From positions 1 through 64,000 of the IMG/VR virus record IMGVR_UViG_3300042562_001235: a stretch of DNA of 64,000 bases; one strand, written 5' to 3'. Below the pieces are notes generated by a model, which was not told the origin of the DNA, ran no database searches, and saw nothing but the letters and a program-made list of their open reading frames with translations. Source of the DNA: a virus. Positions 18,794-49,989 of the stretch are shown one piece after another. Numbering within the stretch: position 1 is the stretch's first letter; each line of letters begins with the position of its first letter. The position numbers were made by a program, and so were the translations under genes.

Positions 18794-19291
18794 ATGAATA
18801 TATTTTTCTTGGATGAGAATCCCAAATTATCAGCACAATATCACGTAGACAAACACGTTGTTAAAATGATTTTAGAGACAGCACAACTTTTATGTGGTGT
18901 TCACCATTCTATCAACACATCAAGTACCCTACAAGTACCCTACAAGTTATCACATAAAAATCATCCTTGTGCAATATGGGCTCGTGAGAGTTTATCAAAT
19001 TATTTGTATTTGTGTGAATTGGGGTTAGAACTTGGTAAAGAATACACATACAGATATGGTAAAAAACACAAATCAATTGAGGTTATTGAATGGTGTATTG
19101 TAAACAAACCTAACATAATTGATATTGGATTTACAAAACCAGCGATGGCAATGCCGGATGAATTTAAAGTTGATTCTGTTGTAGAATCTTACAGGAATTA
19201 TTATATGGGGGCTAAAAGTGATTTAGCATCTTGGAAAAATAGAGAGAAACCTTTTTGGTTTGAAAAAAAAAGAATTACATTTGCAGTATGA
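18794..19291 (+). CDS. hypothetical protein
   Basis: ORF 18737..19291 trimmed to MNIFFLDENPK; the first 19 codons are translated poly-T intergenic sequence. Contains an in-frame 12-bp tandem duplication AGTACCCTACAA x2. Confidence 0.5.
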   Translation: MNIFFLDENPKLSAQYHVDKHVVKMILETAQLLCGVHHSINTSSTLQVPYKLSHKNHPCAIWARESLSNYLYLCELGLELGKEYTYRYGKKHKSIEVIEWCIVNKPNIIDIGFTKPAMAMPDEFKVDSVVESYRNYYMGAKSDLASWKNREKPFWFEKKRITFAV

Positions 19292-19950
19292 TTAAAATAG
19301 ATAAAGATAGAAAAGTTTTTATTACTTCCGATACACATTACGGACATAAAAACATTTGCCGTGGGGTGACAAATTGGAGATTACCGGATGGTAGTATTCC
19401 AATAGACCAAACAAGAGATTTCAAAACAATAGAACAAATGAACGAATCTATTGTTAGTGGAATCAATAGTGTTGTTGGTGAAGATGATGTATTAATTCAC
19501 TTGGGTGACTGGTCTTTTGGCGGGTTTGAAAACATCCAAAAGTTCCGAGATAGAATCGTGTGTAAAGAAGTTCACCTTATATTAGGTAATCACGACCACC
19601 ACATTCAAAATAACCGAGGTGAGTGTCAGGAACTATTTGCAAGCGTTACTCGTTCAACAACTATGTCATACAAATTCAAAACATTTGAACTATTCCACTA
19701 CCCAATTGCATCTTGGGAAAACCTAAACAGAGGGGTTATTCACCTTCACGGACACGTTCACTTGCCAACAAACTTAAGATTTGGTAAAGGTAAGAAAATG
19801 GATGTTGGTATGGATGGCCACCCAACTTTTGGAGTATATGATATGGACGATATCATAAGAATTATGGATAAACGTGATATTGTGTCAGATATGTTATTTG
19901 ACCACCACACGGATGAGATTGAAACCGAAGACGGAAAAAAAAGAAAATAA
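19288..19950 (+). CDS. calcineurin-like metallophosphoesterase
   Basis: DTHYGH, GDWSFGG and GNHDHH metallophosphatase motifs. Confidence 0.65.
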   Translation: MIKIDKDRKVFITSDTHYGHKNICRGVTNWRLPDGSIPIDQTRDFKTIEQMNESIVSGINSVVGEDDVLIHLGDWSFGGFENIQKFRDRIVCKEVHLILGNHDHHIQNNRGECQELFASVTRSTTMSYKFKTFELFHYPIASWENLNRGVIHLHGHVHLPTNLRFGKGKKMDVGMDGHPTFGVYDMDDIIRIMDKRDIVSDMLFDHHTDEIETEDGKKRK

Positions 19951-20010
19951 AATTAGGAAGGTAAGTTTTAATCACTTACATTTGTCAAACAAAAATAAAA
20001 ATAGAAATAT

Positions 20011-20232
20011 ATGCAAACATTGATTTTTAACACAACAACAAAAAAAGTTAAGTTGTTGTCAGGTTCACAAGGTGAATCACAAGTATTAGAGACATTTGAT
20101 AATGTATCAACCGTAAAATGTTCAGAACTTGGATTTTACGAAGTAATGCAAAAGGCGGAATCTCAATCCGTTACTTCAATTCCTGTAATGAGATTACCAA
20201 TTTCAAATACCAATATGTTAATTGAAAAATAG
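20011..20232 (+). CDS. hypothetical protein
   Basis: 73-aa ORF. Confidence 0.35.
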   Translation: MQTLIFNTTTKKVKLLSGSQGESQVLETFDNVSTVKCSELGFYEVMQKAESQSVTSIPVMRLPISNTNMLIEK

Positions 20233-20515
20233 TATGAAGAAAATTGCAATTGTTATTGGGATTTTATTAGTAATAATTGGTTTAGTTGAAACAATTGATT
20301 TATCATTTTATTTGATGAACCGTCCAGACACATACCTATTCAATTCAGGTCTTGTATTATTAGGATTACAATTATTAGGGTTTGCCTACATATGTCGTTT
20401 TATGTTTGATTTAGTATCGAAATGGTCTAAAGATAAGGAAACGGAAATAACAACCGAGGAACCTAAAAAACCAAAGAAAAAAAATAAAAATAACTTAAAA
20501 CAAGAAAAAAAATGA
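20222..20515 (+). CDS. small two-TM membrane protein (NfeD-like partner of the SPFH protein?)
   Basis: Two hydrophobic helices plus a Lys-rich tail; overlaps the downstream SPFH gene start by 4 nt. Confidence 0.45.
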   Translation: MKNSMKKIAIVIGILLVIIGLVETIDLSFYLMNRPDTYLFNSGLVLLGLQLLGFAYICRFMFDLVSKWSKDKETEITTEEPKKPKKKNKNNLKQEKK

Positions 20516-21339
20516 GAAGAATTTTAGTAGCAGTAGGAATTGTCGTATTACTTTTTACAATGGCAATGTCGTGTGAAAGAATCGATGCGGGTCACGTAGG
20601 TGTAAAAGTCGATATGTACGGAAGTGGTAAAGGGGTGAACGATGTCACCGAATGTACGGGGGTAGTATTTTATAATCCTATCACCACAAAAATTTATGAG
20701 TTCCCAACGTTTATACAACACAAAGAATACAAAGATGAAAATTCATTTGTGGTAAATAGTAAGGATGGTTCGGAATTTAGTGTTTCTCCAATTATGAACT
20801 ATTCAGTTCAAAGAGAAAAAGTCCCTACAATATTCGCTAAATACAGAAGAAGTTTGGAAGAAATTGAAGAAGGATTCTTAAAAACTGCAGTGTATGACGC
20901 ATTCCGTTTAGCAACTAATAAGTATACTGCAGATGGATTAATCGGAAATAGAGAAATTTTTGAGATTGAAGTTAGACGTTTGTTAGAAGCTCAACTACTT
21001 AAAGAAGGATTCGTAATTAATCAGTTCACATCTAATTTAGTTTATCCGGATTCATTCAAGAAAGCAATTAATGCTAAGAACAACGCGGTACAGTCGGCAT
21101 TGATGGCGGAGAACAAAGTAAAACAGGCTGAGGCTGAGGCAAAAATTAAAGTGGCAACTGCTAATGGTAATGCTGAGGCATTGTTGGCAAACGCAAGAGC
21201 TGAGGCGGAATCTAACAGATTAAGACAACAAACATTAACTCCAATGTTATTACAACAACAATGGATTGAGAAATGGAAAGGTAATGTTCCAACCACTCAG
21301 TTGGGGGCTAACACTCAAGTGTTGTACGGTCTAAAATAA
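20512..21339 (+). CDS. SPFH/band-7 (prohibitin/stomatin-like) membrane protein
   Basis: N-terminal TM, SPFH-core-like region, C-terminal coiled-coil AEAEAKIKVATANGNAEALLANARAEAES. Confidence 0.65.
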   Translation: MRRILVAVGIVVLLFTMAMSCERIDAGHVGVKVDMYGSGKGVNDVTECTGVVFYNPITTKIYEFPTFIQHKEYKDENSFVVNSKDGSEFSVSPIMNYSVQREKVPTIFAKYRRSLEEIEEGFLKTAVYDAFRLATNKYTADGLIGNREIFEIEVRRLLEAQLLKEGFVINQFTSNLVYPDSFKKAINAKNNAVQSALMAENKVKQAEAEAKIKVATANGNAEALLANARAEAESNRLRQQTLTPMLLQQQWIEKWKGNVPTTQLGANTQVLYGLK

Positions 21340-21351
21340 TAAAAAAATAAA

Positions 21352-21390
21352 ATATTTAAAAAATCCTCATTTATTGAGGATTTTTTTTTA
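21352..21390 (+). terminator. rho-independent terminator (ATCCTCA-TTTAT-TGAGGAT plus T9)
   Basis: Hairpin plus T-run after the SPFH gene. Confidence 0.65.
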
Positions 21391-21396
21391 TCTTTG
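21389..21396 (+). promoter_or_regulatory. -7 promoter box TATCTTTG
   Basis: TAnnTTTG 4 nt before the ATG at 21401; implies a leaderless transcript. Confidence 0.4.
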
Positions 21397-21400
21397 CATT

Positions 21401-22480
21401 ATGAAAATTGATATAGAAATAATAAACAGATACGTTAGTGAAGGTTTGATTGAGAAAAACTCTCATCCAACTCTTCCAATCGCGATTTACAACTACTCAA
21501 GAAAAGTTCAATATGAAGGTCTGTGGGATACAATAACCAGAAATTGTCGAGGTCTTGTATTAGATAATGATGGTAATGTTCTTGCAAAACCATTTGGTAA
21601 GTTTTTCAACATGGAAGAACACGACCCAAGTGAAATCCCAAATGAAACTTTTGAGGTATTTGAAAAAATGGATGGCTCGTTAGGTATATTGTTTTGGTAC
21701 CAAGGTAAATGGATTTTTGCAAGTAAAGGTTCATTCACTTCAGACCAAGCAATTAAAGGTCAAGAAATGTTATCAAAATATGATATACAACCAGTTCCAA
21801 AAGGATATACTACTTTGGTGGAAATTATCTATCCGGAGAATCGTATTGTTTGTGATTATGGTGACGAAGAAAGTTTGGTTGCACTTACTATGATTAGTAA
21901 TGTTTCAGGGAAAGAATTTGATTATTCTTCTTTGATTCAAGTTTGTGAAGTTGTGGGATTCCCAGTTGTTAAACGATATGATGGAGTGGAGGATTATAAG
22001 ACCCTTAAATCAATTATTGAGTCAAACCAAGAAGGTTTTGTCATAAGATTCAGAAATGGGTTTAGAATGAAGATAAAAGGGGAAGAATACGTTCGTCTCC
22101 ACAGAATCTTAACCGGATTTTCTAATATAAACATTTGGGAAGTATTAAAAAATGGGGAAGACATAAACACATATTTGGATAAAGTCCCGGATGAATTTGA
22201 CAAATGGGTTAAAAATGTGGTTAAAGATTTGAGATATGGGTATTTTCAAATTAGTGAAAGAGCTGGAAAAACGTTTGATTACTATATGTATGGTAAGTAC
22301 AACGATAAAGAACCGGTTACAGACAGAAAAGTTTTTGCTGAATGGGTTATGACTCAAGAACAATATCTTCAACCAATATTATTTAAAATGTTTGATAAAA
22401 GGGATTATTCTTCATACATTTGGGAGAAGATAAGACCAACATATAGTAAACCATTTTGGCAAAAAGAAAGTGAGTCATGA
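21401..22480 (+). CDS. ATP-dependent RNA ligase (T4 RnlA-like nucleotidyltransferase)
   Basis: KxDG motif I FEKMDGSLGILF, motif IV EGFVIRF, motif V KIKGEEY. About 360 aa, as for T4 Rnl1. Start chosen at MKIDIEI after the promoter box. Confidence 0.55.
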   Translation: MKIDIEIINRYVSEGLIEKNSHPTLPIAIYNYSRKVQYEGLWDTITRNCRGLVLDNDGNVLAKPFGKFFNMEEHDPSEIPNETFEVFEKMDGSLGILFWYQGKWIFASKGSFTSDQAIKGQEMLSKYDIQPVPKGYTTLVEIIYPENRIVCDYGDEESLVALTMISNVSGKEFDYSSLIQVCEVVGFPVVKRYDGVEDYKTLKSIIESNQEGFVIRFRNGFRMKIKGEEYVRLHRILTGFSNINIWEVLKNGEDINTYLDKVPDEFDKWVKNVVKDLRYGYFQISERAGKTFDYYMYGKYNDKEPVTDRKVFAEWVMTQEQYLQPILFKMFDKRDYSSYIWEKIRPTYSKPFWQKESES

Positions 22481-22686: not shown

Positions 22687-22865
22687 CAAACGAAGAATTC
22701 ACTTTAGAAATACTAATGGAAGCCGAATCTTTAGGTATTCGTAAAGAAGTATTGGAATTATCTAATAAAATCAAACAGGAAAATGAATTTATGGATATTA
22801 ACGCATCCATTGAAAGAGCATTTCAACACATGAAAGCTAAATTACAAGAATATAATAACGTATGA
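22683..22865 (+). CDS. hypothetical protein
   Basis: 60-aa ORF, coupled. Confidence 0.4.
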   Translation: MTNEEFTLEILMEAESLGIRKEVLELSNKIKQENEFMDINASIERAFQHMKAKLQEYNNV

Positions 22866-24116: not shown

Positions 24117-25298
24117 ATGGGATTTATGAATAAATTAGACAAAACATACACAGACCTACTTCAAGATATTCTTGATAATGGTGTGGAGAAAAAAGACAGA
24201 ACCGGGACGGGAACAATCTCAGTATTCGGAAGACAAATCAGACATAAAATGTCAGAAGGATTCCCATTACTTACGACCAAAAAGATGCCGTGGAAATCAA
24301 TCGTCACAGAACTTCTTTGGTTCCTTCAAGGGAATACAAACATCAAATGGTTGGTCGATAATGGATGTAACATTTGGAATGGTGATGCTTATAAAAATTA
24401 TCTACTATTAATGATTGGTAATGAACCTGAAAAGATTTTATCAATGGATGATTTTATTAATAAGATAAAGAACGATGATAAGTTTGCCAAGAAGTGGGGT
24501 GATTTAGGTCCAATTTACGGTAAGCAATGGAGGAAATGGGCACCTGAATCGGGTGAGATTAATAAAGGTGGTGTAGACCAAATCGCAAACCTAATCAATG
24601 ACCTTAAATCAAATCCAGACTCAAGACGATTAATGGTTAATGCTTGGAATGTTGGAGAATTAGACCAAATGGTTCTTCCACCTTGTCATTATGGATTTCA
24701 AGTTTATACAAGAGAGTTGAGTTGGGAAGAGAGAGTTCAATGGGTTTTGAAACATACTGATGTTGAATTAGAGAATCTTTATATTGTTGAAGAAATTGCT
24801 AAAAACTCAACTCCAAAAAGAGCAATCTCTTTAATGTGGAATCAAAGAAGTTGCGATTTATTTTTGGGAATTCCATTCAACATTGCTTCTTATGGATTGT
24901 TATTAGAGATTATAGCAAAAGAAGTAAATATGATTCCGGATGAGTTGATTGGGAATCTTGGTGATGTTCATTTGTATTCAAATCATATTGAACAAGCCAA
25001 AGAACAGATTGGAAGAGAATTAACTCACGAAGAAAGAACCGAATTGTTAAAACAGGCAATGGGTGAAGAAAATTATAATAAAGCGGTTGATGAATTAATG
25101 CCGTTTGGTGGTGGATTAACTGAATATTATGATTCATATAAAATTCCTTATACAACAAGAGAACCTTATAAGTTACCGAGATTAAAATTCTCACCTTGTC
25201 CAATAACCGGAATTGATATGGAGTATCAATCAATTGCCCAATTCCAAATTGAGAACTATGAATCACATCCGGTAATTAAAGCACCTTTGAGTAATTAA
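24117..25298 (+). CDS. thyA: thymidylate synthase homologue (ThyA fold; dUMP methylase or hydroxymethylase) with two insertions
   Basis: Near-collinear with E. coli ThyA: DRTGTGT, LLWFLQG, DLGPIYGKQWR, PDSRRLMVNAWNVGELD, PPCH (catalytic Cys), QRSCDLFLGIPFNIASY, GDVHLYSNH, HPVIKAP. The extra roughly 130 aa lie in two inserts. Confidence 0.85.
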   Translation: MGFMNKLDKTYTDLLQDILDNGVEKKDRTGTGTISVFGRQIRHKMSEGFPLLTTKKMPWKSIVTELLWFLQGNTNIKWLVDNGCNIWNGDAYKNYLLLMIGNEPEKILSMDDFINKIKNDDKFAKKWGDLGPIYGKQWRKWAPESGEINKGGVDQIANLINDLKSNPDSRRLMVNAWNVGELDQMVLPPCHYGFQVYTRELSWEERVQWVLKHTDVELENLYIVEEIAKNSTPKRAISLMWNQRSCDLFLGIPFNIASYGLLLEIIAKEVNMIPDELIGNLGDVHLYSNHIEQAKEQIGRELTHEERTELLKQAMGEENYNKAVDELMPFGGGLTEYYDSYKIPYTTREPYKLPRLKFSPCPITGIDMEYQSIAQFQIENYESHPVIKAPLSN

Positions 25299-30434: not shown

Positions 30435-32318
30435 ATGAAAAAACTTTTTATGGCGCTGTCATTCCTTATAATGACTTCACTGGGTTATTCCCAAATTTGT
30501 CCGACACCGACAACTACCGGAGTTTTTGTTACATTAGACGCAACCTATCAATTAGCACCGGCATCTGCTGGTAATACTGAAGTAGGTTTATGTTTTTTTA
30601 ACAATACTACGGAGTTAGTTACGGCTGCTCAGTTTCGAGTGTTTTATGATACCGCAGCATTCACATCAGTGTCTTCTGTTGTATCGTCAAATACATCGTT
30701 TCCTCAATATATTCAATTTCAGGATAGTCCTGCTAATGGATATGTTACGATTACTCTAACTTACACAGGTAATGATTCCAATTTTGAATTATCAGATGGG
30801 TCATTTGTAAAATTAAATTTAGTACACTCAGCAAATTTTGCGAGTTTGTCGTCTGTTCAACCCATGACATTTAGTGGTGTTCAAACATTCCCACAAACTG
30901 CAACAAAACAAAATGGTTCTGACTATACTTTAAATTTACAAAACTTTGGTGGAGCGTTTTTACCTCAACTATTTTCGTTTAGTGGTACATTCACTAACGT
31001 AACAGGAACGGGGTCAAAATTAATTCCGGTTATTTTAGAGAAAAAATTAATGACATCTTCAACTTGGGTTCAAGCGTCAACAACACAAACAAATAACTCT
31101 GGTGTTTTCACATTTACGGATGTACCATTAGATGTTACAAGTTATGACGTTCGTATTAGAGTAGATGGTGAATCACTAACAATTGCGAATATCATTTCTA
31201 CATCTGACTCACAAAAAATCAACAGATTTGTTTTAGGTCAAGATACTCCAACAGGATTTGATTTCTATTCATCTGATGTTAATGGTGACAACAACATATC
31301 AATTTCTGATGTGTATGGTGTGTTTGGTAGAGTATCAGGAAGATTTAGTTCTTGGCCTAATACGGTTAAAGATGTTAAATTCTTCTCAGATTCAGAATAC
31401 ACTTCTATTAATGGAGCAACATCATCTTTACAATCTACAATTCCGGGTGTAACAAATCTTGTTTACAATATTTTACCGGGTACAACAACAGTTACTTTCT
31501 ATGTCTTAGTTAAAGGAGACGCTAATGGTACTGGTTTTAATATGGCTCGTATGACCCCAATTGAAATCGTAAACCCATTAAACGCACCATCAAATATTAT
31601 TGATGTTACAACAACTTATGACAACCCAACATTACAAACAATCGAATTAAACTATCCAAGTTTAACGGTAAATGAAAATAGTAGAGTTGAGGTTCCTGTT
31701 CTTGTAAAAACAAATGGAATTCAATTAGGTTCTTTACAACTAGCACTAAATTACAATAGTAATCTATTAGATTTTACAGGTGTTAGAGCGGAGAATAAAG
31801 TTAGTGGATGGATAACTTATGTTAACACAAATGATAATATTGTTGAGTGGGGTGGTTATGACCCAACAAAAAATACGAAATTATTAAACGACAACGAATT
31901 AGCATTCACGCTACAATTCATAGCGAAAGAAATTCAAAGTCAATGGGGTGTAAGTCCTTTATATGTTACAAAAAAATTCTCAGGAAATTCAATTGCTAAA
32001 GATTTGAAAATAATACCAACAAACGGAATTATTCAAATCATGAGAGTTATGAAACCAACCGATTTAGAATATATGGTGACATATCCAAATCCAACTGATA
32101 ATGAAATCACAGTCAAATTTACAGTAGAAAAAGAAGGTAATGTTTGGTTGTCTTTATATGATTTGGGTGGTAGAGAAATTAAAACAATTGTTCGTACTGA
32201 TTTAAATTCAGGAGAACACAGATATAGTACAAATGTTGGTCACCTTCCTTCAGGGACTTACATCGTTACTCTTAAAAAAGGTACGGGAATAGAATCTAAT
32301 AAGATTATCCGTAAATAA
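30435..32318 (+). CDS. secreted protein with a T9SS (Por) C-terminal sorting domain
   Basis: Signal peptide. The C-terminus LSLYDLGGREIKTIVRTDLNSGEHRYSTNVGHLPSGTYIVTLKKGTGIESNKIIRK fits the T9SS type-A CTD. Internal DVNGDNNISISDVYGVFGRVSGRFSSW motif is shared with 35350..36324. Confidence 0.6.
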   Translation: MKKLFMALSFLIMTSLGYSQICPTPTTTGVFVTLDATYQLAPASAGNTEVGLCFFNNTTELVTAAQFRVFYDTAAFTSVSSVVSSNTSFPQYIQFQDSPANGYVTITLTYTGNDSNFELSDGSFVKLNLVHSANFASLSSVQPMTFSGVQTFPQTATKQNGSDYTLNLQNFGGAFLPQLFSFSGTFTNVTGTGSKLIPVILEKKLMTSSTWVQASTTQTNNSGVFTFTDVPLDVTSYDVRIRVDGESLTIANIISTSDSQKINRFVLGQDTPTGFDFYSSDVNGDNNISISDVYGVFGRVSGRFSSWPNTVKDVKFFSDSEYTSINGATSSLQSTIPGVTNLVYNILPGTTTVTFYVLVKGDANGTGFNMARMTPIEIVNPLNAPSNIIDVTTTYDNPTLQTIELNYPSLTVNENSRVEVPVLVKTNGIQLGSLQLALNYNSNLLDFTGVRAENKVSGWITYVNTNDNIVEWGGYDPTKNTKLLNDNELAFTLQFIAKEIQSQWGVSPLYVTKKFSGNSIAKDLKIIPTNGIIQIMRVMKPTDLEYMVTYPNPTDNEITVKFTVEKEGNVWLSLYDLGGREIKTIVRTDLNSGEHRYSTNVGHLPSGTYIVTLKKGTGIESNKIIRK

Positions 32319-35349: not shown

Positions 35350-36324
35350 ATGACAAAGTTATTCTACATATTACTTTTATTTTCAACAATCTCTTGGAGT
35401 CAAAATTTTACTTACTCGGGTTATATCTATAACTCGGTAGGTGGTGGTATTCAAAATATGGAAGTAAAGTTGTATAAAAGAACAACACCAACTTTAAATG
35501 GGTTTACCTCTCAAAATAATTATAACGGACATTCATATTATCGTTCAACCGGTTCGATGACTTGGACGGATGCAAGACAGGCGTGTTTAAACATGGGAGG
35601 TCATTTAGTTACAGTAACTTCACCCGCTGAGAATAACTTTATATTTAATCTATGGCCAAATGGTTGGATTGGATTAACAGATGAAGTATCAGAAGGTACT
35701 TGGAGATGGGTTACAAATGAACCCTTTTCTTGGTCTAATTGGAATGGTGGGGAACCAAATAACGCAGGTAATGAAGATTATATTCAATTTGTTGGTGGTG
35801 GTAAATGGAATGATTTACCTAATATTTCATTACCATATGTTTTGGAGTTTGAGTATATTGTAACATTTACGGAATGGGCATACGTAAAAAGTGTTTACAC
35901 AGATTCTAATGGGAGATACTCAATTAATGAAGCTTCAAACCCTTCAGTTGAATGGTATTTACAAATTGGTACACCATCCACTCCACCTTTATTAGAAAAT
36001 GTTGATGCACAACAATCAAATACCAAATCAATATCAAGAACATTAACTTCATTAGATTATTATAGATATGACGTTAATAACGATGGTAGAATCAATATAT
36101 CGGATTCATATTACATTTTTATGAAAAAATCCGGTAGATTTTCTTCTTGGGAAACCTCACTTCCTAATTCAAGAATCTTCACACCATCACAATATTCAAT
36201 TCTAAATTCTTCAACTACTGATTTAAGAATTTCGTATCCCGGTGTTCAAAGTTTTACCATTAATTCTCCGATAAATGGGGGGTCTTCAAATTTTTATTTA
36301 ATAAGAACGGGTAAAAAGGACTAA
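35350..36324 (+). CDS. secreted C-type lectin domain protein
   Basis: Canonical CTLD: WTDARQACLNMGGHLVTVTS...WIGLTD...GEPNN...EDYI...WNDL, with EPN and WND Ca/mannose-type motifs. Also carries YRYDVNNDGRINISDSYYIFMKKSGRFSSW, shared with 30435..32318. Confidence 0.7.
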   Translation: MTKLFYILLLFSTISWSQNFTYSGYIYNSVGGGIQNMEVKLYKRTTPTLNGFTSQNNYNGHSYYRSTGSMTWTDARQACLNMGGHLVTVTSPAENNFIFNLWPNGWIGLTDEVSEGTWRWVTNEPFSWSNWNGGEPNNAGNEDYIQFVGGGKWNDLPNISLPYVLEFEYIVTFTEWAYVKSVYTDSNGRYSINEASNPSVEWYLQIGTPSTPPLLENVDAQQSNTKSISRTLTSLDYYRYDVNNDGRINISDSYYIFMKKSGRFSSWETSLPNSRIFTPSQYSILNSSTTDLRISYPGVQSFTINSPINGGSSNFYLIRTGKKD

Positions 36325-36361: not shown

Positions 36362-37183
36362 ATGATACTAAAAAATGGCTCAAAAGGCGAAGAAGTTAAA
36401 AAACTTCAATCAAAATTAGGGACAACACCTGATGGTGTTTTCGGTCCCGGAACTGAAAAATTGGTTAAAGAATGGCAAACTAAAAATGGATTAACATCTG
36501 ACGGGATTGTTGGTGATGGAACTTGGAAAAAAATGTTTCCGGGGGAAATCATTAAAGAAGATGTCGTTATTCCATCGGGAGGACCATTAAAATTAGAAAA
36601 ATTAAAAGGACACATTCCGGAATCAGTAATTGTTCAAATTCCTGACACTGCAAAAAAATTCAACATCACTAATCCATTAAGATTAGCTCATTTCTTGGCA
36701 CAATGTGGTCATGAATCAGGTGGATTTAAAGCAGTTTCTGAAAATGTAAATTATTCTGCTGATGGTCTTAAAAAAATCTTCCCAAAATACTTTCCGGGCA
36801 ACTTAGCAGAATCTTACGCAAGAAACCCTGAAAAAATTGCATCAAAAGTATATGGTGGAAGAATGGGTAATGGAGATGAGGCATCAAAAGATGGTTTCAA
36901 ATTCAGAGGTCGTGGTTATATTCAATTAACAGGAAAACAAAACTATACAAACTTCGCGAAATTTATCGGTGAAGATACTGTATCAAATCCTGATTTAGTC
37001 GCAACAAAATATCCATTAGCATCAGCAGCATTCTTCTTCGACTCAAACAAACTTTGGTCTATTTGTGATAAAGGAGCTGACGACGCAACAGTAACGGCAG
37101 TAACTAAAAGAGTAAATGGTGGAACTATTGGTTTACCTGATAGAATTAAGCATTTTAAAGAATATTATAATTTATTAAAATAA
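36362..37183 (+). CDS. endolysin: PG_binding_1 domain plus glycoside hydrolase family 19 (lysozyme/chitinase-like) domain
   Basis: N-terminus KGEEVKKLQSKLGTTPDGVFGPGTEKLVKEWQTKNGLTSDGIVGDGTW. The catalytic region FLAQCGHESGGF...YGGRMGNG...FRGRGYIQLTGKQNY matches GH19. Confidence 0.8.
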   Translation: MILKNGSKGEEVKKLQSKLGTTPDGVFGPGTEKLVKEWQTKNGLTSDGIVGDGTWKKMFPGEIIKEDVVIPSGGPLKLEKLKGHIPESVIVQIPDTAKKFNITNPLRLAHFLAQCGHESGGFKAVSENVNYSADGLKKIFPKYFPGNLAESYARNPEKIASKVYGGRMGNGDEASKDGFKFRGRGYIQLTGKQNYTNFAKFIGEDTVSNPDLVATKYPLASAAFFFDSNKLWSICDKGADDATVTAVTKRVNGGTIGLPDRIKHFKEYYNLLK

Positions 37184-37636: not shown

Positions 37637-38272
37637 ATGGAGCCAGAAAAAGACATATTTGAACAATGGGCGGAAAAACGTGAAAAACAACCATGGATTG
37701 TAAGAAAATTACGGTTTATTCCATTATGGTGGGACCACGAAGGGAAATATTTACATCTTGAATTCAAAAGAGGTGTAAAAAACCTAATTTATTGGTTCCC
37801 AATCATATGGAAAGACCGAAATTGGGATAGTCATTACATCTTTGAGATAATGAAACACAAATTATCGTCTCAAGCCGACTATATTGGTCGTAGAGATTTA
37901 CATACTCGAGCTCAGTTAGACGCAAAAAGAATGAAATTGTGTGTTAAACTAATGAAATTGGTTCAAGATGAGTTTTATTCGTCAGAATACTCAGATTATC
38001 ATAAAACAAAACATTGGTTTGAACCAGTTCCGGGTGACGAAAGATTATCATCTTGGGAATCAAGAACATTAGAGGAAAATTTTGACGATTATTTTAAAAA
38101 ATACCCATTAATTTACAAAAGAGTGTTAAATGGTGAGGGTATTATTAATAGAAAAGGTCGTGAGGATGATAAACAATTAATTGCTATGAATATCGGATAC
38201 ATAAATCACGATAGAGTTAGAAAATTGTTATTCAAAATAATGGAAGAAAACATCGAAGGATGGTGGGATTAG
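37637..38272 (+). CDS. hypothetical protein
   Basis: 211-aa ORF. Confidence 0.5.
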   Translation: MEPEKDIFEQWAEKREKQPWIVRKLRFIPLWWDHEGKYLHLEFKRGVKNLIYWFPIIWKDRNWDSHYIFEIMKHKLSSQADYIGRRDLHTRAQLDAKRMKLCVKLMKLVQDEFYSSEYSDYHKTKHWFEPVPGDERLSSWESRTLEENFDDYFKKYPLIYKRVLNGEGIINRKGREDDKQLIAMNIGYINHDRVRKLLFKIMEENIEGWWD

Positions 38273-38640: not shown

Positions 38641-39345
38641 ATGAGAATAACACTTATTTCAGACACACACAACAAACACAAACAAATTACCGGTGATTTA
38701 CCGGGTGGTGATTTATTGGTACATAGTGGTGATATCTCTTCAATGGGTTACGAGCACGAAATCAGAGAGTTCTGTAAGTGGTTTAATGGTATTGAAGGTT
38801 ATACTCACAAGGTATTCATTGCAGGAAACCACGATTGGGGATTCCAAGACAACACTGAAGTAGTAAAAGAAATTTTGAAATTTTACTCAGGAATAACCTA
38901 TCTTCAAGATAGTGAATTAGTAATAAAAGTTGGTGATGAGAGAGAAGTTAAAATCTATGGTAGTCCTTGGCAACCTTGGTTTCACGATTGGGCTTTCAAT
39001 TTACAAAAAAATGGTATTGCTCTTTCAGGCAAATGGGAAGGAATTCCTGATGATACTGATATTTTACTAACTCACGGACCGGCCTTTGGAATATTAGACA
39101 CCGTTGATGGTAGAAGATACGATAATTTAGGTTGTGAGTTATTGGTTGAAAGATTAGAGAGATTAAACGTTAAAATTCATAATGTTGGTCATATCCACAC
39201 CGGTTATGGTTATGTTAGAAAAGGCGATACACACCATTTTAACTCAGCGGTTTTAGATGAGAGATATAATTATGCACAAAGACCAATGACTATTGATTGG
39301 AATCCGGATACAAACGAAGTAAATTTTATTGAAGATGGAAAATAA
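38641..39345 (+). CDS. calcineurin-like metallophosphoesterase (paralogue of 19288..19950)
   Basis: LISDTHNKH, LVHSGDIS, AGNHDW, GHIHTGYG. Confidence 0.65.
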   Translation: MRITLISDTHNKHKQITGDLPGGDLLVHSGDISSMGYEHEIREFCKWFNGIEGYTHKVFIAGNHDWGFQDNTEVVKEILKFYSGITYLQDSELVIKVGDEREVKIYGSPWQPWFHDWAFNLQKNGIALSGKWEGIPDDTDILLTHGPAFGILDTVDGRRYDNLGCELLVERLERLNVKIHNVGHIHTGYGYVRKGDTHHFNSAVLDERYNYAQRPMTIDWNPDTNEVNFIEDGK

Positions 39346-39625
39346 AAAAGATTTATTAATTTGTGATTGTCATTCAACTGAACATCAAATGGTTGTTCTA
39401 TACGCTGAGGACGAAATTGAGGGTATAACATATCCAACGGTTTATATTCACACACATTTAACCAAACGCCCATTTTGGCAGAGAGTTGGTTATGGTTTGA
39501 GATATATCTTTGGAAGACAATGTAGATACGGAGCATTTGATGAATTTATCTTTAATCCGGAAGATTCAGACAAATTACAAAATTTGGTTGATTATTTAAA
39601 AAGAGAACATAAAGGTGGTGAATAA
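39329..39625 (+). CDS. hypothetical protein
   Basis: 98-aa ORF followed by a terminator. Confidence 0.4.
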   Translation: MKMENKKDLLICDCHSTEHQMVVLYAEDEIEGITYPTVYIHTHLTKRPFWQRVGYGLRYIFGRQCRYGAFDEFIFNPEDSDKLQNLVDYLKREHKGGE

Positions 39626-44740: not shown

Positions 44741-45382
44741 ATGAAAAACATTATTTTAACTTTAGGATTTATTCTAATGTCTTCACTATTATTTAGCCAA
44801 GATACTATTAGAATCAAACACACTAATTATACGACAGTATTTAGTAAAACTAAACATTACCCGGTCTTAGTTGAGTGGTGGACGACAAAGTCCATGGTTA
44901 CTTGTAAAACTCCTCTCAAACGAAAAGATAATTTTAAACCGGACCCTCAATTGCCAAAAGAAACAGATTTATTAAAAGATTATGTTGGTAGTGGTACCGA
45001 CCGAGGTCATATGATGCCAGCGGCAGATAATCTTTGTCAAACACCACAAGTTCAAGATGAATGTTTTTACTTTTCAAATATGTCAGCACAATATCACTCG
45101 TTAAATGCTGGTGATTGGAAGTCATTAGAAACATTAACTCGTAAGTTGGCAACTGAACAAGACAGTATTAAAGTTTGGTGTGGGAATGTTGGTGAGATTA
45201 AGAGAATTGGTAGAGTCTCAGTTCCTAAACAATGTTGGAAAGTTGTTTACATTAAAAAAAGTAACACATACTACTCATATCTTTTTGATAACACTACAAA
45301 TAAACCAGATGGGATTGAAAATAATTTAGTTAAAATTGAAGTCATTGAGAAGTTAACCGGATTTAAATTTAATGTAAAATAA
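44741..45382 (+). CDS. secreted DNA/RNA non-specific endonuclease (Endonuclease_NS/NUC family)
   Basis: Signal peptide. Active-site motif GSGTDRGHMMPAADN (Serratia nuclease DRGH) and downstream N...N..W. Confidence 0.7.
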   Translation: MKNIILTLGFILMSSLLFSQDTIRIKHTNYTTVFSKTKHYPVLVEWWTTKSMVTCKTPLKRKDNFKPDPQLPKETDLLKDYVGSGTDRGHMMPAADNLCQTPQVQDECFYFSNMSAQYHSLNAGDWKSLETLTRKLATEQDSIKVWCGNVGEIKRIGRVSVPKQCWKVVYIKKSNTYYSYLFDNTTNKPDGIENNLVKIEVIEKLTGFKFNVK

Positions 45383-46538: not shown

Positions 46539-46539
46539 T

Positions 46540-46809: not shown

Positions 46810-46810
46810 G

Positions 46811-47419: not shown

Positions 47420-47449
47420 ATCTATAAATAGTTTTATTATATAAATATA

Positions 47450-47476
47450 ACAAAACCCCCATACGGGGGTTTTTTT
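47450..47476. terminator. bidirectional terminator (CCCCCATACGGGGG plus T7)
   Basis: Hairpin flanked by an A-run and a T-run. Confidence 0.65.
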
Positions 47477-47909
47477 AATTTAATATGGTAATTGAGTTGA
47501 TTTTATCACCTTGTTGAATTGAATCGACAATTTCTAACCCTTCAGTTACTCGTCCAAAACAAGTATGGTTACCATCTAAATGTTGAGTACCTTGTCTACT
47601 ATGACAAATGAAGAATTGTGAACCACCTGTATTTCTTCCGGCATGTGCCATAGATAATACTCCTCTATCGTGGAATTGGTTTGATGAAGTAACCTCACAA
47701 GGGATGTTATATCCCGGACCACCACTACCGGTTCCGTTTGGGCATCCTCCTTGGATTACAAAATTAGGGATAACTCTATGGAAATTTAATCCATCATAGA
47801 ATTTTTTTTCAATAAGGTCTTTAAAGTTTTTTACGGTAATTGGAGTCTCATTATCGTATAGTTCGGCAATCATGTCGCCTTTGTCTGTAGAAAATTTTAC
47901 TTTAGTCAT
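47475..47909 (-). CDS. cyclophilin-type peptidyl-prolyl cis-trans isomerase
   Basis: FHRVIPNFVIQGGCPNGTGSGGPGY ... GVLSMAHAG ... GSQFFICH matches PpiA/PpiB signatures. Confidence 0.85.
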   Translation of the reverse strand: MTKVKFSTDKGDMIAELYDNETPITVKNFKDLIEKKFYDGLNFHRVIPNFVIQGGCPNGTGSGGPGYNIPCEVTSSNQFHDRGVLSMAHAGRNTGGSQFFICHSRQGTQHLDGNHTCFGRVTEGLEIVDSIQQGDKINSITILN

Positions 47910-47955
47910 ATGTTATTTTTTTGGAAAATATATGAAAAGTATTGTATATTGTCAA

Positions 47956-48222
47956 TTAATAATCAATGTCCGTGTTCTCCATCATTATAACTTCAACATC
48001 TAATCCAATATAATTTTTTATTTTATCACGAATCAATAATTGATATTTTGTTTTTGATTTACTCATTAGATAATTTTTTAATGGAATTAAAACATATATG
48101 GAACCAGTCGATGAAAATATAACTTCAACTTTTATCGCCAATGGGACTTTAATATCTTCAACTATTTCTTTAATTGTGGATATTATTCTTTCTTTTTGTT
48201 TTTCACTGATAATGACATCCAT
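47956..48222 (-). CDS. hypothetical protein
   Basis: 88-aa ORF. Confidence 0.4.
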   Translation of the reverse strand: MDVIISEKQKERIISTIKEIVEDIKVPLAIKVEVIFSSTGSIYVLIPLKNYLMSKSKTKYQLLIRDKIKNYIGLDVEVIMMENTDIDY

Positions 48223-48223
48223 A

Positions 48224-49255
48224 CTATTCAGGATTTAACGAATATAATCTAATGAAATTTCTTCTTAATTTTTCACCCATCTTATTTATTGTTGGTTGGA
48301 AATATTTCATTAAATCCAAGATATTTTTGGTGTTCATTATTTTTTTATTCAAGGGATTGTTGTAACCCGTCTTTTTACTAAATTCATAGTAAGCAATAAA
48401 ATACGTGTGAAGAGTTTCTAAAAGGGTGTTTTGTTCTTCTTGAGGTAAATCCTCAATAAGTTCTAAGATGTATTCATAATAATCGTTAGCATCAAAGTTA
48501 ATCATCCCTTGGCAATATTGCCAATATTTTGTAGTTTTGAATTGTTCAAACGGCATTCTTAATCTTTTACTATAAGCTTCTTGAGACATCGCTCTTACTT
48601 CGTAAGGTTCAGACATATATAATAAAGATAAAAATTGTTTCCACACAGAAAGAACTTCTTTATTTATTCCAGTATCAATCATCTCAAAAGGTTTTTTCAT
48701 AAATGATAATGTAGTATCTAACCCTTTTTCACCTTTTAAAGCTCTGTTGTAATACTCATACATATGATTAAATTCATGTAATACCGCATCCCTAAAATCA
48801 TACAACATCTCGTCAATATCTTCAAAATCTTTATTGATTATAAATTGAAACTCAAAACCTGCAACCAATGACATATGAATCTCATCCGAAAAACTTTTTG
48901 GTAAATATTTGCTAGGTTCTTTTATATAAGAACCATTATCAATCATATCAGCATAAGCTAAAACTTGGAATCCTTCAGGTATTGGATTCTCATCCAATCT
49001 TTCAAAAGAAAATTTAATTATAATCTCTTCAATGGGTAGTTCAATAAAATCTTCCAAATTAGATTTATAAATTGGGAAAATGTCTTTTAGAGATATTTTA
49101 AGTGTTTCCTCTATTTTTTTATCTGAATTAAATAAACTTTTAACTTTTCCACTAACAAAGTCGTAAATTAGATTTGTAAATGGGATAGACGCACGGGAAA
49201 CCCCTAAGTCTTCGTTTAGTAATTTGTATTGTGATTCTGTAATGATATATTTCAT
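48224..49255 (-). CDS. TES-leader family protein (MKYIITESQYKLLNEDLGVS); body contains HEFNH
   Basis: Conserved N-terminal peptide; TATTTATAAAATATG at the start. Confidence 0.55.
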   Translation of the reverse strand: MKYIITESQYKLLNEDLGVSRASIPFTNLIYDFVSGKVKSLFNSDKKIEETLKISLKDIFPIYKSNLEDFIELPIEEIIIKFSFERLDENPIPEGFQVLAYADMIDNGSYIKEPSKYLPKSFSDEIHMSLVAGFEFQFIINKDFEDIDEMLYDFRDAVLHEFNHMYEYYNRALKGEKGLDTTLSFMKKPFEMIDTGINKEVLSVWKQFLSLLYMSEPYEVRAMSQEAYSKRLRMPFEQFKTTKYWQYCQGMINFDANDYYEYILELIEDLPQEEQNTLLETLHTYFIAYYEFSKKTGYNNPLNKKIMNTKNILDLMKYFQPTINKMGEKLRRNFIRLYSLNPE

Positions 49256-49325
49256 ATTTTATAAATACCTAAATAACCATATTTGACTTATTAATCATTA
49301 TTTAATATTATTCTAAAAAAAAACT

Positions 49326-49535
49326 ATGATATACTTAAATGTAATTTTAACCGTCCTTTGTCTTATTTTAATTTCTTTTCTTATATTAGCCATTTATTTA
49401 GTGAAGGAGTATAAAAATAAATTTAAACAATTCCCATCTCAAATGAATCCAACTTGGGGTAATATTCCAAACTCTCCTGAAGATTTAAATGAAATGACCA
49501 CTAAATTAATGAAAGAATTATTTAAAGGTAAATAA
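49326..49535 (+). CDS. small membrane protein
   Basis: 69 aa with an N-terminal TM. Confidence 0.35.
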   Translation: MIYLNVILTVLCLILISFLILAIYLVKEYKNKFKQFPSQMNPTWGNIPNSPEDLNEMTTKLMKELFKGK

Positions 49536-49539
49536 CATT

Positions 49540-49989
49540 ATGAGAAACATAAATAATCACTTATCGGAGGCCATAACGGATATTGAAACAACTAAAGGGG
49601 CAACTAAAGAATTATTTCTATTAAGAGGATTACCGGGAAGTGGTAAGTCAACATTGGCAAAATCAATAAGTGGTATTCATTTTGAAGCGGATATGTATTT
49701 TATGAAAGATGATAAATATCAATTTGATATTACTAGATTAAAAGACGCGCATCAATGGTGTCAAGAAGGTGTTGAAAAAGGTATGACAGTTTTAAATCAG
49801 TCGCGTATTGTAGTGTCAAACACATTTACACAGGAGTGGGAAATTAAACCATATTTTGACTTAGCTGAAAAACACGGATATAGAGTTTATTCTTTAATCG
49901 TTGAAAACAGACACGATGGTGTTAATGAACATGGGGTTCCGGAAGATAAATTGAAAATAATGAAAAATCGTTTTGAGGTAAAACTTTAA
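49540..49989 (+). CDS. P-loop kinase (AAA_33 / polynucleotide-kinase kinase-domain-like)
   Basis: Walker A LLRGLPGSGKSTLAKS. At 149 aa its size and layout are comparable to the T4 Pnk kinase domain. Confidence 0.5.
   Translation: MRNINNHLSEAITDIETTKGATKELFLLRGLPGSGKSTLAKSISGIHFEADMYFMKDDKYQFDITRLKDAHQWCQEGVEKGMTVLNQSRIVVSNTFTQEWEIKPYFDLAEKHGYRVYSLIVENRHDGVNEHGVPEDKLKIMKNRFEVKL

Follow-up and report, generated by a model that had tools for sequence, protein, structure and literature searches.

The window analysed here, the first 64,000 nucleotides of the virus record IMGVR_UViG_3300042562_001235, is likely to carry, in rearranged form, a conserved phage module for healing and sealing RNA, made up of three separate enzymes (a ligase, a kinase and the phosphoesterase MPE1; Table 1), for which we infer the substrates, the order of steps and a role in counter-defence. 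Modules of this kind have already been predicted in phages by the surveys of the Aravind laboratory (2021, 2022), and the window is a further example; the same repair logic is predicted by comparative genomics in jumbo and medium-sized phages (PMC7824862, PMC9503650). The probable function of the trio is the repair of cleaved RNA, tRNA for example. The cut, most plausibly in the anticodon loop of a tRNA, would be made by a ribonuclease of the host or of a competitor and leave a 2′,3′-cyclic phosphate and a 5′-OH; the kinase would phosphorylate the 5′-OH end, MPE1 would open and remove the 2′,3′-cyclic or 3′-phosphate to give a 3′-OH, and the Rnl1-type ligase would seal the ends with ATP via a lysyl-AMP at K98. 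In most relatives the genes of the module are adjacent, often accompanied by cREC, a predicted cyclic-phosphate opener, and by the small gene g27.

Table 1. Features of the window considered in this study
Feature	Position	Strand	Description
tRNA array	23..946	-	Eight tRNAs found with ARAGORN: Ile-GAT, Asn-GTT, Phe-GAA, Tyr-GTA, Val-TAC, Cys-GCA, Gln-TTG, Ser-TGA
X (g25)	18794..19291	+	165 aa; upstream partner of MPE1 conserved in one subclade
MPE1	19288..19950	+	Stand-alone binuclear metallophosphoesterase, aq_1665 clade; proposed 2′,3′-cyclic/3′-phosphate end-healing enzyme
g27	20011..20232	+	Conserved 73-aa protein; usually directly upstream of the ligase in relatives
Hairpin	21358..21386	+	Terminator-like, in the gap between the Band_7 and ligase genes; 12-bp stem, then a T run
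Ligase	21401..22480	+	Rnl1-family ATP-dependent RNA ligase; proposed sealing enzyme
T9SS Por_Secre_tail protein	30435..32318		
MPE2	38641..39345	+	MPPED2-like metallophosphodiesterase; judged not to belong to the module
s96 (g54)	39329..39625	+	Small ORF, here relocated beside MPE2
Kinase	49540..49989	+	Stand-alone P-loop kinase of the PNK-like clade, 149 aa; proposed RNA 5′-OH kinase

The three enzymes

The four ORFs singled out by the original prediction (the trio and MPE2) are all present, with the domains that it had given them. The presumed RNA ligase matches Pfam RNA_lig_T4_1 (E 1e-19; 71.5 bits for a Pfam cut-off of 28.3), phrog_562 over its full length (E 1e-67; residues 23-360 of the protein against 21-367 of 377) and the structures of T4 Rnl1 (E 3e-15), while its score against the NCBIfam equivalog, 82.7 bits, is far below the cut-off of 242. 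R59, K76, F78, K98-x-D100-G101, E150, E220-G221 and K233/K235, counted from TTG 21374, are kept across 85 relatives. Judged by its sequence, this is a catalytically intact enzyme of the T4 Rnl1 family, all the Rnl1 catalytic residues checked being present. Two starts are possible, TTG 21374 and ATG 21401; the latter, as originally proposed, is favoured because the hairpin overlaps the upstream TTG, and relatives align from residue 10. The hairpin itself is weak evidence, terminator-like sites being no more numerous in the region than in shuffled controls.

The kinase matches Pfam AAA_33 (E 1e-9) and phrog_2071 (E 4e-42) and, weakly, the polynucleotide kinase family phrog_505 (E 6e-6). It has a GSGKST P-loop and an invariant D51, which aligns with D35 of T4 Pnk, the catalytic-base Asp (PMC11571804). 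The Arg of the D-x-x-R motif of T4 and Cth Pnk is absent, and an invariant F54 aligns with R38 of the T4 enzyme. Among PDB entries, the family profile finds best a Mucorales tRNA-splicing RNA 5′-OH kinase (9d8a, E 3e-5), with further matches to T4 Pnk (3e-4), PSTK (5e-4) and CthPnk (1e-3) and weak ones to nicotinamide riboside kinase (E 0.03) and uridine kinase. RNA or polynucleotide 5′-OH kinases are thus, at the level of sequence profiles, its closest solved relatives, in keeping with the resemblance to Pnk first noticed. An AF2 model (pLDDT 79) matches T4 Pnk, CthPnk, PSTK and the PFK-2 kinase domain, and in the fold search small-molecule kinases (PFK-2, gluconate kinase) score about as well as Pnk. 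Of 80 loci carrying the kinase family in cellular genomes, 75 have the kinase on its own, in Vibrio among housekeeping genes, and the family therefore is not exclusively a repair component.

MPE1 matches Pfam Metallophos (E 5e-8) and phrog_547 (E 1e-44), and conservation across 102 relatives is at least 95% for its metal-ligand motifs D15-x-H17, G73-D74, G100-N101-H102-D103 and G155-H156-x-H158. The family profile has a sole match in the PDB, aq_1665 (1xm7, E 1e-6), which is also closest to the AF2 model (pLDDT 81; TM 0.71), lambda phosphatase being only distant. From these motifs and matches, MPE1 is assigned as an intact metallophosphoesterase of the uncharacterised aq_1665 clade, not close to the Clostridium Pnkp and lambda phosphatases in profile and fold comparison. 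Clostridium Pnkp provides a precedent for a metallophosphoesterase as a 2′,3′-phosphate healing enzyme (PMC3675462, PMC2190708).

Gene neighbourhoods in relatives and in the window

Neighbours within 5 kb of the ligase were counted in 52 distinct viral loci, each flanked by 3 kb or more on either side. The kinase was present in 46 of them and MPE1 in 40, always on the same strand as the ligase, against 22 (up to 42%) for the best control neighbour. In 40 loci retrieved independently with MPE1 as the anchor, the kinase was near in 29 and the ligase in 21. Median gaps are short, 453 nt between kinase and ligase and 518 nt between kinase and MPE1, and the genes occur in many orders, among them MPE1-KIN-LIG (27), KIN-MPE1 (15), cREC-MPE1-KIN-LIG (12), KIN-LIG-cREC (11) and LIG-MPE1-KIN-cREC (8), the ligases of the rearranged loci being 43-68% identical. 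cREC co-occurs in 19/52 ligase-anchored and 17/40 MPE1-anchored loci. The small gene g27, whose product has no significant match in Pfam or PHROG, lies within 5 kb of the ligase and on its strand in 26/52, typically in the order KIN-g27-LIG. Part of this linkage is inherited synteny, since a single broad group of related phages supplied most of the loci. Two unrelated cultured phages, PaP1 (Pakpunavirus) and VPG01 (Demerecviridae), also have the trio clustered and co-directional. Because the cluster is conserved in relatives, the joint presence of kinase, MPE1 and ligase goes beyond chance. The functional link first proposed for all four flagged genes is thus supported for these three and not for MPE2, whose conserved partner is another gene, g51.

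The window shows a derived arrangement: the trio is scattered, the kinase now lies 27 kb away from the ligase, and cREC, frequently a partner in relatives, is missing. MPE1 and the ligase are separated by a Band_7 gene and g28, the kinase sits in a small plus-strand islet, and the four flagged genes span 30 kb among unrelated genes (Band_7, thioesterase, ThyA, lectin, endolysin, cyclophilin). The window has none of the partners cREC, sirtuin, MazG, Nudix, 2H, KptA and HAD.

Comparison with known repair systems

The three activities proposed for the trio are those of T4 Pnkp and Rnl1, a tRNA repair pathway that counters the anticodon nuclease PrrC. The window ligase and T4 Rnl1 belong to the same family with conserved catalytic residues, the kinase shares with T4 Pnk the PNK-like fold, the P-loop and the catalytic Asp, and in T4, too, the repair genes need not be adjacent. 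In contrast, the kinase of T4 Pnk is fused to a phosphatase, whereas that of the window is a separate 149-aa protein, about 18% identical and with Phe in place of R38; 3′-end healing in T4 is carried out by a DxDxT (HAD) phosphatase, and a binuclear metallophosphoesterase is proposed for this role here. The Pnkp/Hen1 system of Clostridium thermocellum and Pnkp1-Rnl-Hen1 of Capnocytophaga gingivalis combine, as in the window, a metallophosphoesterase, a P-loop 5′-kinase and an ATP-dependent ligase, and our kinase has the CthPnk kinase domain among its best matches in both sequence and fold. But these systems carry the three modules on a single polypeptide that acts together with a Hen1 methyltransferase, while the window has three proteins and no Hen1 was found in it; moreover, the CthPnkp phosphatase is of the lambda-phosphatase/CthPnkp clade, unlike MPE1, and the bacterial enzyme has a Pnkp ligase domain instead of an Rnl1-type ligase.

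The neighbourhoods predicted by Iyer, Burroughs, Aravind et al. comprise a T4-like tRNA ligase, cREC and a nucleotide kinase (with MazG, sirtuin and an occasional calcineurin-like phosphoesterase) together with phage tRNAs (PMC7824862, 2021; PMC9503650, 2022). Component families and logic are the same in the relatives of the window, with ligase-kinase-MPE-cREC clusters sometimes beside tRNA arrays; yet there the phosphoesterase is occasional and the hosts are Proteobacteria, whereas here it is constant, the hosts are plausibly Bacteroidota and the window genes are dispersed. The trios of PaP1 (gp026-gp022-gp021) and VPG01 (038-036-035), labelled ‘phosphoesterase’, ‘RNA ligase 1’ and ‘putative ATPase’ by their depositors, are of the same three families (family-HMM E 1e-20 to 1e-52), but are only 24-51% identical to the window proteins and adjoin the NAD+ salvage genes PRS and NAMPT, absent from the window. 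No experimental study of these proteins is known to us. The Mucorales kinases RazKIN and MciKIN resemble the window kinase in being small and stand-alone, with a GSGKST P-loop, an essential downstream Asp and a separate ligase; they differ in being eukaryotic, GTP-specific and devoted to tRNA splicing with a Trl1-type ligase requiring a 2′-phosphate (PMC11571804), and their similarity to the window family is weak and mostly N-terminal.

tRNA array and host

The array of eight tRNAs in the original prediction is real, seven of the eight being confirmed by Rfam, and lies outside the range there given; it touches the edge of the window and may extend beyond. Lys tRNA is the classical target of PrrC, and a Lys anticodon is not among the eight. 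In the window 18 kb separate the array from the module genes, while relatives of architecture A have 8-14 tRNAs arrayed immediately upstream of the module and co-directional with it, and the four tRNAs of a group in Flavobacterium phage immuto stop 11 nt short of the MPE1 homologue. In other subclades, however, arrays do not abut the module, and many carriers of the module have no tRNA within 10 kb. The association is no more than suggestive, with the tRNAs as possible substrates of the module or supplements. A Bacteroidota host, as first proposed, is plausible, because the window encodes a T9SS Por_Secre_tail protein and the nearest cultured relatives of the phage are Flavobacterium and Cellulophaga phages.

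Alternative explanations

It is unlikely that these genes serve nucleotide, NAD+ or signal metabolism, with the kinase acting on small molecules (nucleoside, nicotinamide riboside), MPE1 (with cREC) degrading immune signals derived from cyclic nucleotides or ADP-ribose, and the ligase as a neighbour with a separate role. Such functions would agree with the position of the kinase just upstream of PRPP synthetase and NAMPT in PaP1 and VPG01, with its weak profile matches to nicotinamide riboside and uridine kinases, its fold matches to PFK-2 and gluconate kinases and its solitary state in cellular genomes, and processing of ADPr derivatives has also been proposed for cREC by its definers (PMC7824862, PMC9503650). 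But only 3-4 of 249 viral loci have PRS and NAMPT alongside the module, the kinase is linked most tightly to the RNA ligase and MPE1, and in the profile search the scores of polynucleotide kinases are about 100-fold better than that of nicotinamide riboside kinase. Repair of DNA ends appears slightly less probable still: damaged DNA would be nicked by X, acting as a DenV-like glycosylase/lyase, blocked 3′ ends cleaned by MPE1, 5′-OH DNA phosphorylated by the kinase and the ends sealed by the ligase. The ligase, however, is Rnl1-type and not a DNA ligase, and both cREC as a partner and the tRNA arrays next to the module speak for RNA. X has a sub-threshold match to Pyr_excise (E 0.004), a homologue labelled ‘putative endonuclease V’ by one depositor and a stop that overlaps the MPE1 start at 19288..19291, yet it is near MPE1 in only 14/40 loci and near the ligase in 6/52, whereas the core of kinase, MPE1 and ligase is far more constant. 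Two further points in favour of DNA are the weak match of MPE1 to NCBIfam PdeM, a ‘ligase-associated DNA damage response’ phosphoesterase (E 6e-4, far below cut-off), and the activity of polynucleotide kinases of this class on DNA too (PMC11571804).

To a similarly small extent we would credit RNA healing and sealing as housekeeping, e.g. in the maturation, splicing or quality control of phage tRNAs or other transcripts, rather than counter-defence. The large arrays that immediately precede the module in one subclade and in immuto, the use of a stand-alone kinase and ligase in Mucorales tRNA splicing (PMC11571804) and the fact that no host anticodon nuclease is known here would fit; against this, neither ARAGORN nor Rfam reported intron-containing tRNAs in the window, the module often occurs far from any tRNA, and the only precedent in phages established by experiment, that of T4 Pnkp/Rnl1 against PrrC, is counter-defence (PMC2610378). 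Chance co-presence of four unrelated accessory genes in one large phage genome would explain their dispersal in the window, and Rnl1-like ligases are common, with more than 2,100 phage records, but clustering of the trio that survives rearrangement in relatives and recurs in unrelated cultured phages contradicts it and leaves it very improbable. It does hold for MPE2.

MPE2 and accessory genes

MPE2 matches Pfam Metallophos (E 1e-10) and MPPED2 in the PDB (3rl4, E 2e-39). The two metallophosphoesterases had been described as paralogous; they are not close paralogues, since their clades differ and they share only a motif-level match of 66 residues (BLASTP E 1e-3). As a candidate member of the module MPE2 was rejected: in 42 eligible relatives its conserved partner is g51 (30/42), with the kinase near in four, MPE1 in one and the ligase in none.

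Whether X is a module member is uncertain. Its sequence matches phrog_624, ‘DNA binding protein’ (E 6e-60), and nothing in the PDB, and it is possibly DenV-like; it shares 80-84% identity with the gene that precedes MPE1 in two relatives (L006, L008). The s96 ORF is 68-74% identical to ORFs between MPE1 and the kinase in the same two loci, and its counterpart holds that position in relatives of the order cREC-X-MPE1-...-KIN-LIG.

Linkage of the kinase, phosphoesterase and ligase genes in related phages

The four genes that the original prediction had gathered into an RNA-repair toolkit, a T4 Rnl1-type ligase, a kinase and two metallophosphoesterases (MPE1 and MPE2), are all present in the window and carry the claimed domains according to Pfam and PHROG (see the table). 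Comparison with relatives shows that the kinase, MPE1 and the ligase constitute a widespread and conserved putative module. On long metagenomic contigs, close kinase homologues lie in a tight co-directional cluster made of cREC (a predicted cyclic-phosphate opener), gene X, a Metallophos protein of 220 aa, two small ORFs, the kinase, DUF3307 and RNA_lig_T4_1. Gene-by-gene identity to the window (80-84% for X versus g25, 73-90% for the phosphoesterase versus MPE1 and 58% for the ligase) shows this cluster to be the counterpart of the 18794..22480 block, with the kinase still inside.

Loci were sampled independently, 80 viral ones via MPE1 and 80 via the ligase, and all candidate components were mapped onto them; linkage was counted over distinct loci flanked by 3 kb or more on either side, a neighbour being a gene within 5 kb. 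Next to the ligase, and always on the same strand, the kinase was found in 46 of 52 loci, MPE1 in 40, g27 (a gene following MPE1 in the window) in 26 and cREC in 19, while the controls, genes flanking this block in the window, reached 22/52 at most (thymidylate synthase, ThyA). Loci anchored on MPE1 had the kinase in 29 cases out of 40, the ligase in 21 and cREC in 17. Kinase and MPE1 are a median of 518 nt apart, kinase and ligase 453 nt; the corresponding distances in the window are 29.6 and 27.1 kb. The trio is retained in many different gene orders, and at 43-68% ligase identity we find MPE1-KIN-LIG, cREC-MPE1-KIN-LIG, KIN-LIG-cREC, LIG-MPE1-KIN-cREC and KIN-MPE1 (KIN, kinase; LIG, ligase). 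Clusters of the three families also occur in cultured phages that belong to unrelated lineages, with family-HMM E-values of 1e-20 to 1e-52: Pseudomonas phage PaP1 (gp026 phosphoesterase, gp022 RNA ligase 1 and gp021 'putative ATPase') and Vibrio phage VPG01 (038 RNA ligase, 036 and 035). Comparative clustering thus excludes coincidence as an explanation of the trio. An apparent cREC-kinase fusion in one relative (L136, a 273-aa apparent ORF) proved to be two adjacent genes separated by a stop codon.

The kinase family is represented in 626 cultured-phage records. Of 80 loci from cellular genomes, 75 have it on its own among housekeeping genes; such homologues say nothing on partners, and linkage to the ligase and MPE1 is therefore a phage feature. 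Many Vibrio chromosomes have a homologue of the kinase, 38-50% identical, as a conserved single gene (L263-L323, Vibrio and other bacteria; match at ~6001..6390 in most loci), with metA, a TPR protein, an RlmF-type RNA methyltransferase and an ABC-2 transporter as neighbours, and no ligase or phosphoesterase partner was seen in the Vibrio loci examined.

Features of the window discussed in the text (strand and annotation as reported)
Feature	Position	Strand	Annotation
tRNA array	23..946	-	eight tRNA genes (ARAGORN)
tRNA-Tyr(GTA)	468..549	-	82 nt (ARAGORN)
Carbamoyltransferases, two in tandem	3881..5545, 5549..7138	+	Carbam_trans_N/C
ClpP-family protease	7787..8533	+	
2OG-Fe(II) oxygenase	15665..16333	-	
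Family 17 glycosyltransferase	16322..17575	+	
X (g25)	18794..19291		
MPE1	19288..19950	+	Metallophos; phrog_547
g27	20011..20232		
Band_7/SPFH protein (275 aa) and putative membrane protein (97 aa)	20222..21339	+	
Ligase	21401..22480	+	RNA_lig_T4_1; phrog_562 'RNA ligase and tail fiber protein attachment catalyst'
Thymidylate synthase (ThyA)	24117..25298	+	393 aa
Cohesin-domain protein	30435..32318	+	type IX secretion (T9SS) C-terminal sorting signal
C-type lectin domain protein	35350..36324	+	
Endolysin-like protein	36362..37183	+	PG_binding_1/glycoside hydrolase 19
g51	37637..38272	+	211 aa, no Pfam match
MPE2	38641..39345	+	Metallophos
s96 (g54)	39329..39625		
DNA/RNA non-specific endonuclease	44741..45382	+	
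Cyclophilin-type peptidyl-prolyl isomerase	47475..47909	-	
Kinase	49540..49989	+	AAA_33; phrog_2071; weak match to polynucleotide kinase phrog_505
Class II aminoacyl-tRNA synthetase catalytic core	56025..56834	-	269 aa; Pfam tRNA-synt_2, E 7e-14

Active sites and structural relatives of the three enzymes

The ligase matches PF09511 over all 227 profile positions with 71.5 bits (Pfam gathering cut-off 28.3). Residues K98-M-D100-G101, E220-G221, K233/K235, R59, K76, F78 and E150 (numbered from the TTG at 21374) show at least 95% conservation across 85 relatives, and its catalytic residues align with the T4 Rnl1 motifs KEDGSL, EGYV and FKIK. In T4 Rnl1, mutagenesis has assigned roles to motif I, K-x-D-G, with the adenylated lysine, motif IV, E-G, motif V, K-x-K, and an Arg and a Lys/Phe pair contacting ATP. 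The Rnl1-specific C-terminal domain, which in T4 is implicated in tRNA specificity, may or may not be shared: the pairwise alignment with T4 Rnl1 ends at residue 252, and the profile matches go on beyond this point (TIGR02308 positions 51-358 of 373; phrog_562, the T4 gp63/Rnl1 family, positions 21-367 of 377). With 82.7 bits the protein falls far below the cut-off of 242.25 bits of the NCBIfam equivalog TIGR02308 (T4 RnlA orthologue). By these matches it is a member of the T4 Rnl1 family and not an equivalog, with a putative preference for RNA such as broken tRNA over nicked DNA.

The kinase has a P-loop, G30-L-P-G33-S-G35-K36-S37-T38, that fits G-x-x-G-x-GK(S/T), and its GSGKST is identical to the P-loop motif given for an RNA 5'-OH kinase, in which an Asp downstream of the P-loop is essential (PMC11571804). 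The invariant D51 (38 diverse relatives) aligns with D35, the general base of T4 Pnk. The Arg of the D-x-x-R motif (R38 in T4, R41 in Cth) is absent, an invariant F54 occupying the position of T4 R38. One defining feature of T4-type Pnk, an arginine contacting the acceptor's phosphate, is therefore missing. Searched against the PDB, the family profile matched best RazKIN (9d8a; E 3e-5), T4 Pnk (3e-4), PSTK (5e-4) and CthPnk (1e-3), and Foldseek matched the AlphaFold model (pLDDT 79) to T4 Pnk (3.6e-5) and CthPnk (5.6e-5), with a TM score of ~0.57, as well as to PSTK. RazKIN is the stand-alone tRNA-splicing RNA 5'-OH kinase of Mucorales, whose function has been demonstrated (PMC11571804). The kinase domain of PFK-2 scores equally to T4 Pnk and CthPnk in the Foldseek search, so that the fold is compatible with a polynucleotide kinase and leaves the substrate undecided. 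Model and closest solved relatives agree on a PNK-like protein, with putative 5'-OH kinase activity on RNA or DNA. A comparison with a sequence taken as human N4BP2L1 gave 36% identity and E 1e-23, a lead rather than a verified relationship.

In MPE1 the metal motifs D15-x-H17, G73-D74, G100-N101-H102-D103, H137 and G155-H156-x-H158 are conserved in 102 relatives; judged by these residues, the set of predicted binuclear metal ligands is complete. The only PDB match to the family profile is the uncharacterised protein aq_1665 of Aquifex (E 1e-6), which is also the closest Foldseek match of the AlphaFold model (pLDDT 81; TM 0.71); lambda phosphatase is distant (TM 0.39, E 4e-3) and the CthPnkp phosphatase does not appear among the 50 Foldseek matches listed. 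Neither approach thus revealed specific relatedness of MPE1 to these two phosphatases. The best 120 of more than 7,800 homologues are stand-alone proteins of ~217-259 aa with Metallophos-type domains only; none of these 120 is fused to kinase or ligase modules and their labels go no further than 'calcineurin-like phosphoesterase'.

MPE2 is a different matter. Described in the original prediction as a paralogue of MPE1, it shares with it only a motif-level match of 66 residues (E 1e-3), so that the two are not close paralogues. It matches MPPED2 (PDB 3rl4) with E 2e-39 over residues 2-219, the DTH, GD, GNHD and GHIH motifs being in the alignment, which clearly makes it a predicted MPPED2-like metallophosphodiesterase of the class III cyclic-nucleotide type. 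In 42 eligible MPE2-anchored loci its conserved partner is g51, located upstream, in 30 cases, against 4 for the kinase, 1 for MPE1 and none for the ligase. Hence the idea of a toolkit of linked genes survives for the kinase, MPE1 and ligase, which cluster in relatives, but has to be given up for MPE2, whose presence coincidence does describe. MPE2 could be a phage cyclic-nucleotide phosphodiesterase acting against host nucleotide signalling. Immediately downstream of it in the window is a small ORF, s96, whose place is between MPE1 and the kinase in the relatives with the order cREC-X-MPE1-...-KIN-LIG (architecture A).

A candidate RNA heal-and-seal pathway

Cleavage of tRNA by host defences (PrrC, RloC, PARIS, retron-linked nucleases) is a growing theme in phage-host conflict, and T4 Pnkp/Rnl1 is, to our knowledge, the only experimentally established phage repair pathway. 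Linked as they are, and with intact active sites, the three enzymes may form another one; their substrates, the order of steps and a role in counter-defence are what we infer. We give roughly even chances to the proposal that the kinase, the aq_1665-type phosphoesterase and the Rnl1 ligase make up a distinct, never characterised three-protein pathway of RNA healing and sealing, common to unrelated phage lineages (Bacteroidota phages, Pakpunavirus, Demerecviridae), in which both domains of T4 Pnkp would be replaced, one by a kinase that lacks the Pnk Arg (apparently of N4BP2L1 type), the other by an orphan clade of metallophosphoesterases. In the many relatives that have it, cREC may help at the 3' end. 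If true, the proposal would provide the first function for the aq_1665 family and for a kinase family that many bacterial chromosomes also carry singly and that animals apparently have too. The subject is of moderate interest in that, as far as we know, both healing enzyme families are uncharacterised though the trio is widespread in cultured phages; it offers a specific candidate for a phage RNA repair pathway of a second type, one that can be put to the test in the cultured carriers available.

Other roles may be considered. A function in small-molecule or NAD+/signal metabolism is brought to mind by PRS and NAMPT genes adjoining the module in PaP1 and VPG01, but these accompany it in only 3-4 of 249 viral loci and are absent from the window; a linkage to NAD+ salvage was thus discarded and we hold such a function to be unlikely. 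As for DNA repair, the stop codon of X overlaps the start of MPE1, X has a sub-threshold match to a pyrimidine-dimer glycosylase (Pyr_excise) and MPE1 a weak one to PdeM. However, the ligase is of the Rnl1 type and X, for which we found no PDB match and otherwise only inconsistent depositor labels, is an inconstant partner, so that DNA repair appears quite improbable. We would likewise give little credit to a housekeeping role in RNA processing.

The proposed heal-and-seal pathway has precedents. T4 Pnkp/Rnl1 acts against PrrC (PMC2610378), and 2',3'-cyclic phosphates are removed by the Mn2+-dependent metallophosphoesterase module of Clostridium Pnkp (PMC3675462) and also by lambda phosphatase (PMC2190708). 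Large phages have been predicted to combine, for RNA repair, tRNAs, Rnl1, Rnl2 or RtcB ligases, polynucleotide kinases and HAD, calcineurin-like, HD, 2H or cRec phosphoesterases (PMC7824862), and a neighbourhood with a T4-like tRNA ligase, cREC, a nucleotide kinase, MazG and an occasional calcineurin-like phosphoesterase was described (PMC9503650). Because these Aravind-lab surveys already predict such combinations, the window is a dispersed, cREC-less instance of a computationally predicted kind, and this Bacteroidota-phage variant is all that it contributes by itself. Contrary to the cREC neighbourhood of PMC7824862, no cREC is linked to the ligase or kinase in the window, while relatives have it (19 of the 52 ligase-anchored loci). 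Sirtuin, MazG, Nudix, 2H, KptA and HAD genes, partners known from published neighbourhoods, were also absent from Pfam scans of ~78 window ORFs.

Dispersed arrangement in the window

The window belongs to a sub-lineage together with its nearest relatives, L010, L015, L016, L028, L090-L095 and L111. Here MPE1 and the ligase are separated by g28 and a Band_7 gene, and the kinase is found at another place. The Band_7/SPFH protein and the 97-aa putative membrane protein between MPE1/g27 and the ligase are found there in this sub-lineage only, many relatives having no Band_7 gene at that position. In the window a long minus-strand block is interrupted by a small plus-strand islet, which consists of the kinase and a 69-aa ORF; the syntenic loci L003-L005 have the same islet, with the kinase followed by cREC. 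Searches of the entire window by tblastn and with unfiltered family HMMs revealed neither cREC (PF20274; best E 0.2) nor DUF3307. The cREC gene could reside elsewhere in the genome, outside the 64 kb.

tRNA array, host and accessory genes

An array of eight tRNA genes, as originally predicted, is present (seven were confirmed by Rfam), albeit outside the interval assigned to the toolkit. It touches the edge of the window and may therefore be longer. Lys is absent among the eight anticodons seen. The tRNA-Tyr(GTA) was not reported by the Rfam tRNA model at gathering score. The array is 18 kb away from the module in the window; in architecture-A relatives the module is immediately preceded, on the same strand, by arrays of 8-14 tRNAs, and Flavobacterium phage immuto has four tRNAs, the last ending 11 nt before its MPE1 homologue. 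In other subclades there is no tRNA within 10 kb of the module. The connection between array and module is suggestive only. In four related phages (L008 3035..3111, L017 4886..4962, L022 6989..7065 and L036 4739..4815), ARAGORN also reported a recurrent tRNA-like gene whose anticodon has four bases, gaaa; its place in the arrays preceding the module is the same in all four. Another, with tagt, was reported in L006 (131..208). These could be tRNAs with an 8-nt anticodon loop or artefacts of the caller.

The window comes from a large phage genome that is AT-rich, its GC content being ~31%. When close cultured relatives were sought at the DNA level, only short ThyA matches to phage immuto were returned. 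A Bacteroidota host, as the original prediction had it, fits the sequence and is plausible because a phage protein carries a T9SS sorting signal and because there is protein-level similarity to Flavobacterium and Cellulophaga phages. Scans for sigma-70 promoters and for terminators gave counts not above those of shuffled controls, and the consensus is not appropriate for Bacteroidota.

The cohesin-domain protein with the sorting signal is encoded in one plus-strand block with the C-type lectin domain protein and the endolysin-like protein. The Pfam match of ThyA extends over residues 9-310 yet covers only 234 of 266 profile positions, so that the protein must have insertions and be extended at its C-terminus relative to the profile; phage immuto likewise has a long homologue. 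The 269-aa protein that consists of nothing but the catalytic core of a class II aminoacyl-tRNA synthetase matches EpmA/GenX, AsnA and Asp/Asn-tRNA ligases weakly, every match being far below cut-off. The two tandem carbamoyltransferase genes adjoin the tRNA array and are followed by a 212-aa ORF and the ClpP-family protease gene, an unusual accessory set. Other accessory genes encode a DNA/RNA non-specific endonuclease, a cyclophilin-type peptidyl-prolyl isomerase, a 2OG-Fe(II) oxygenase and a family 17 glycosyltransferase.
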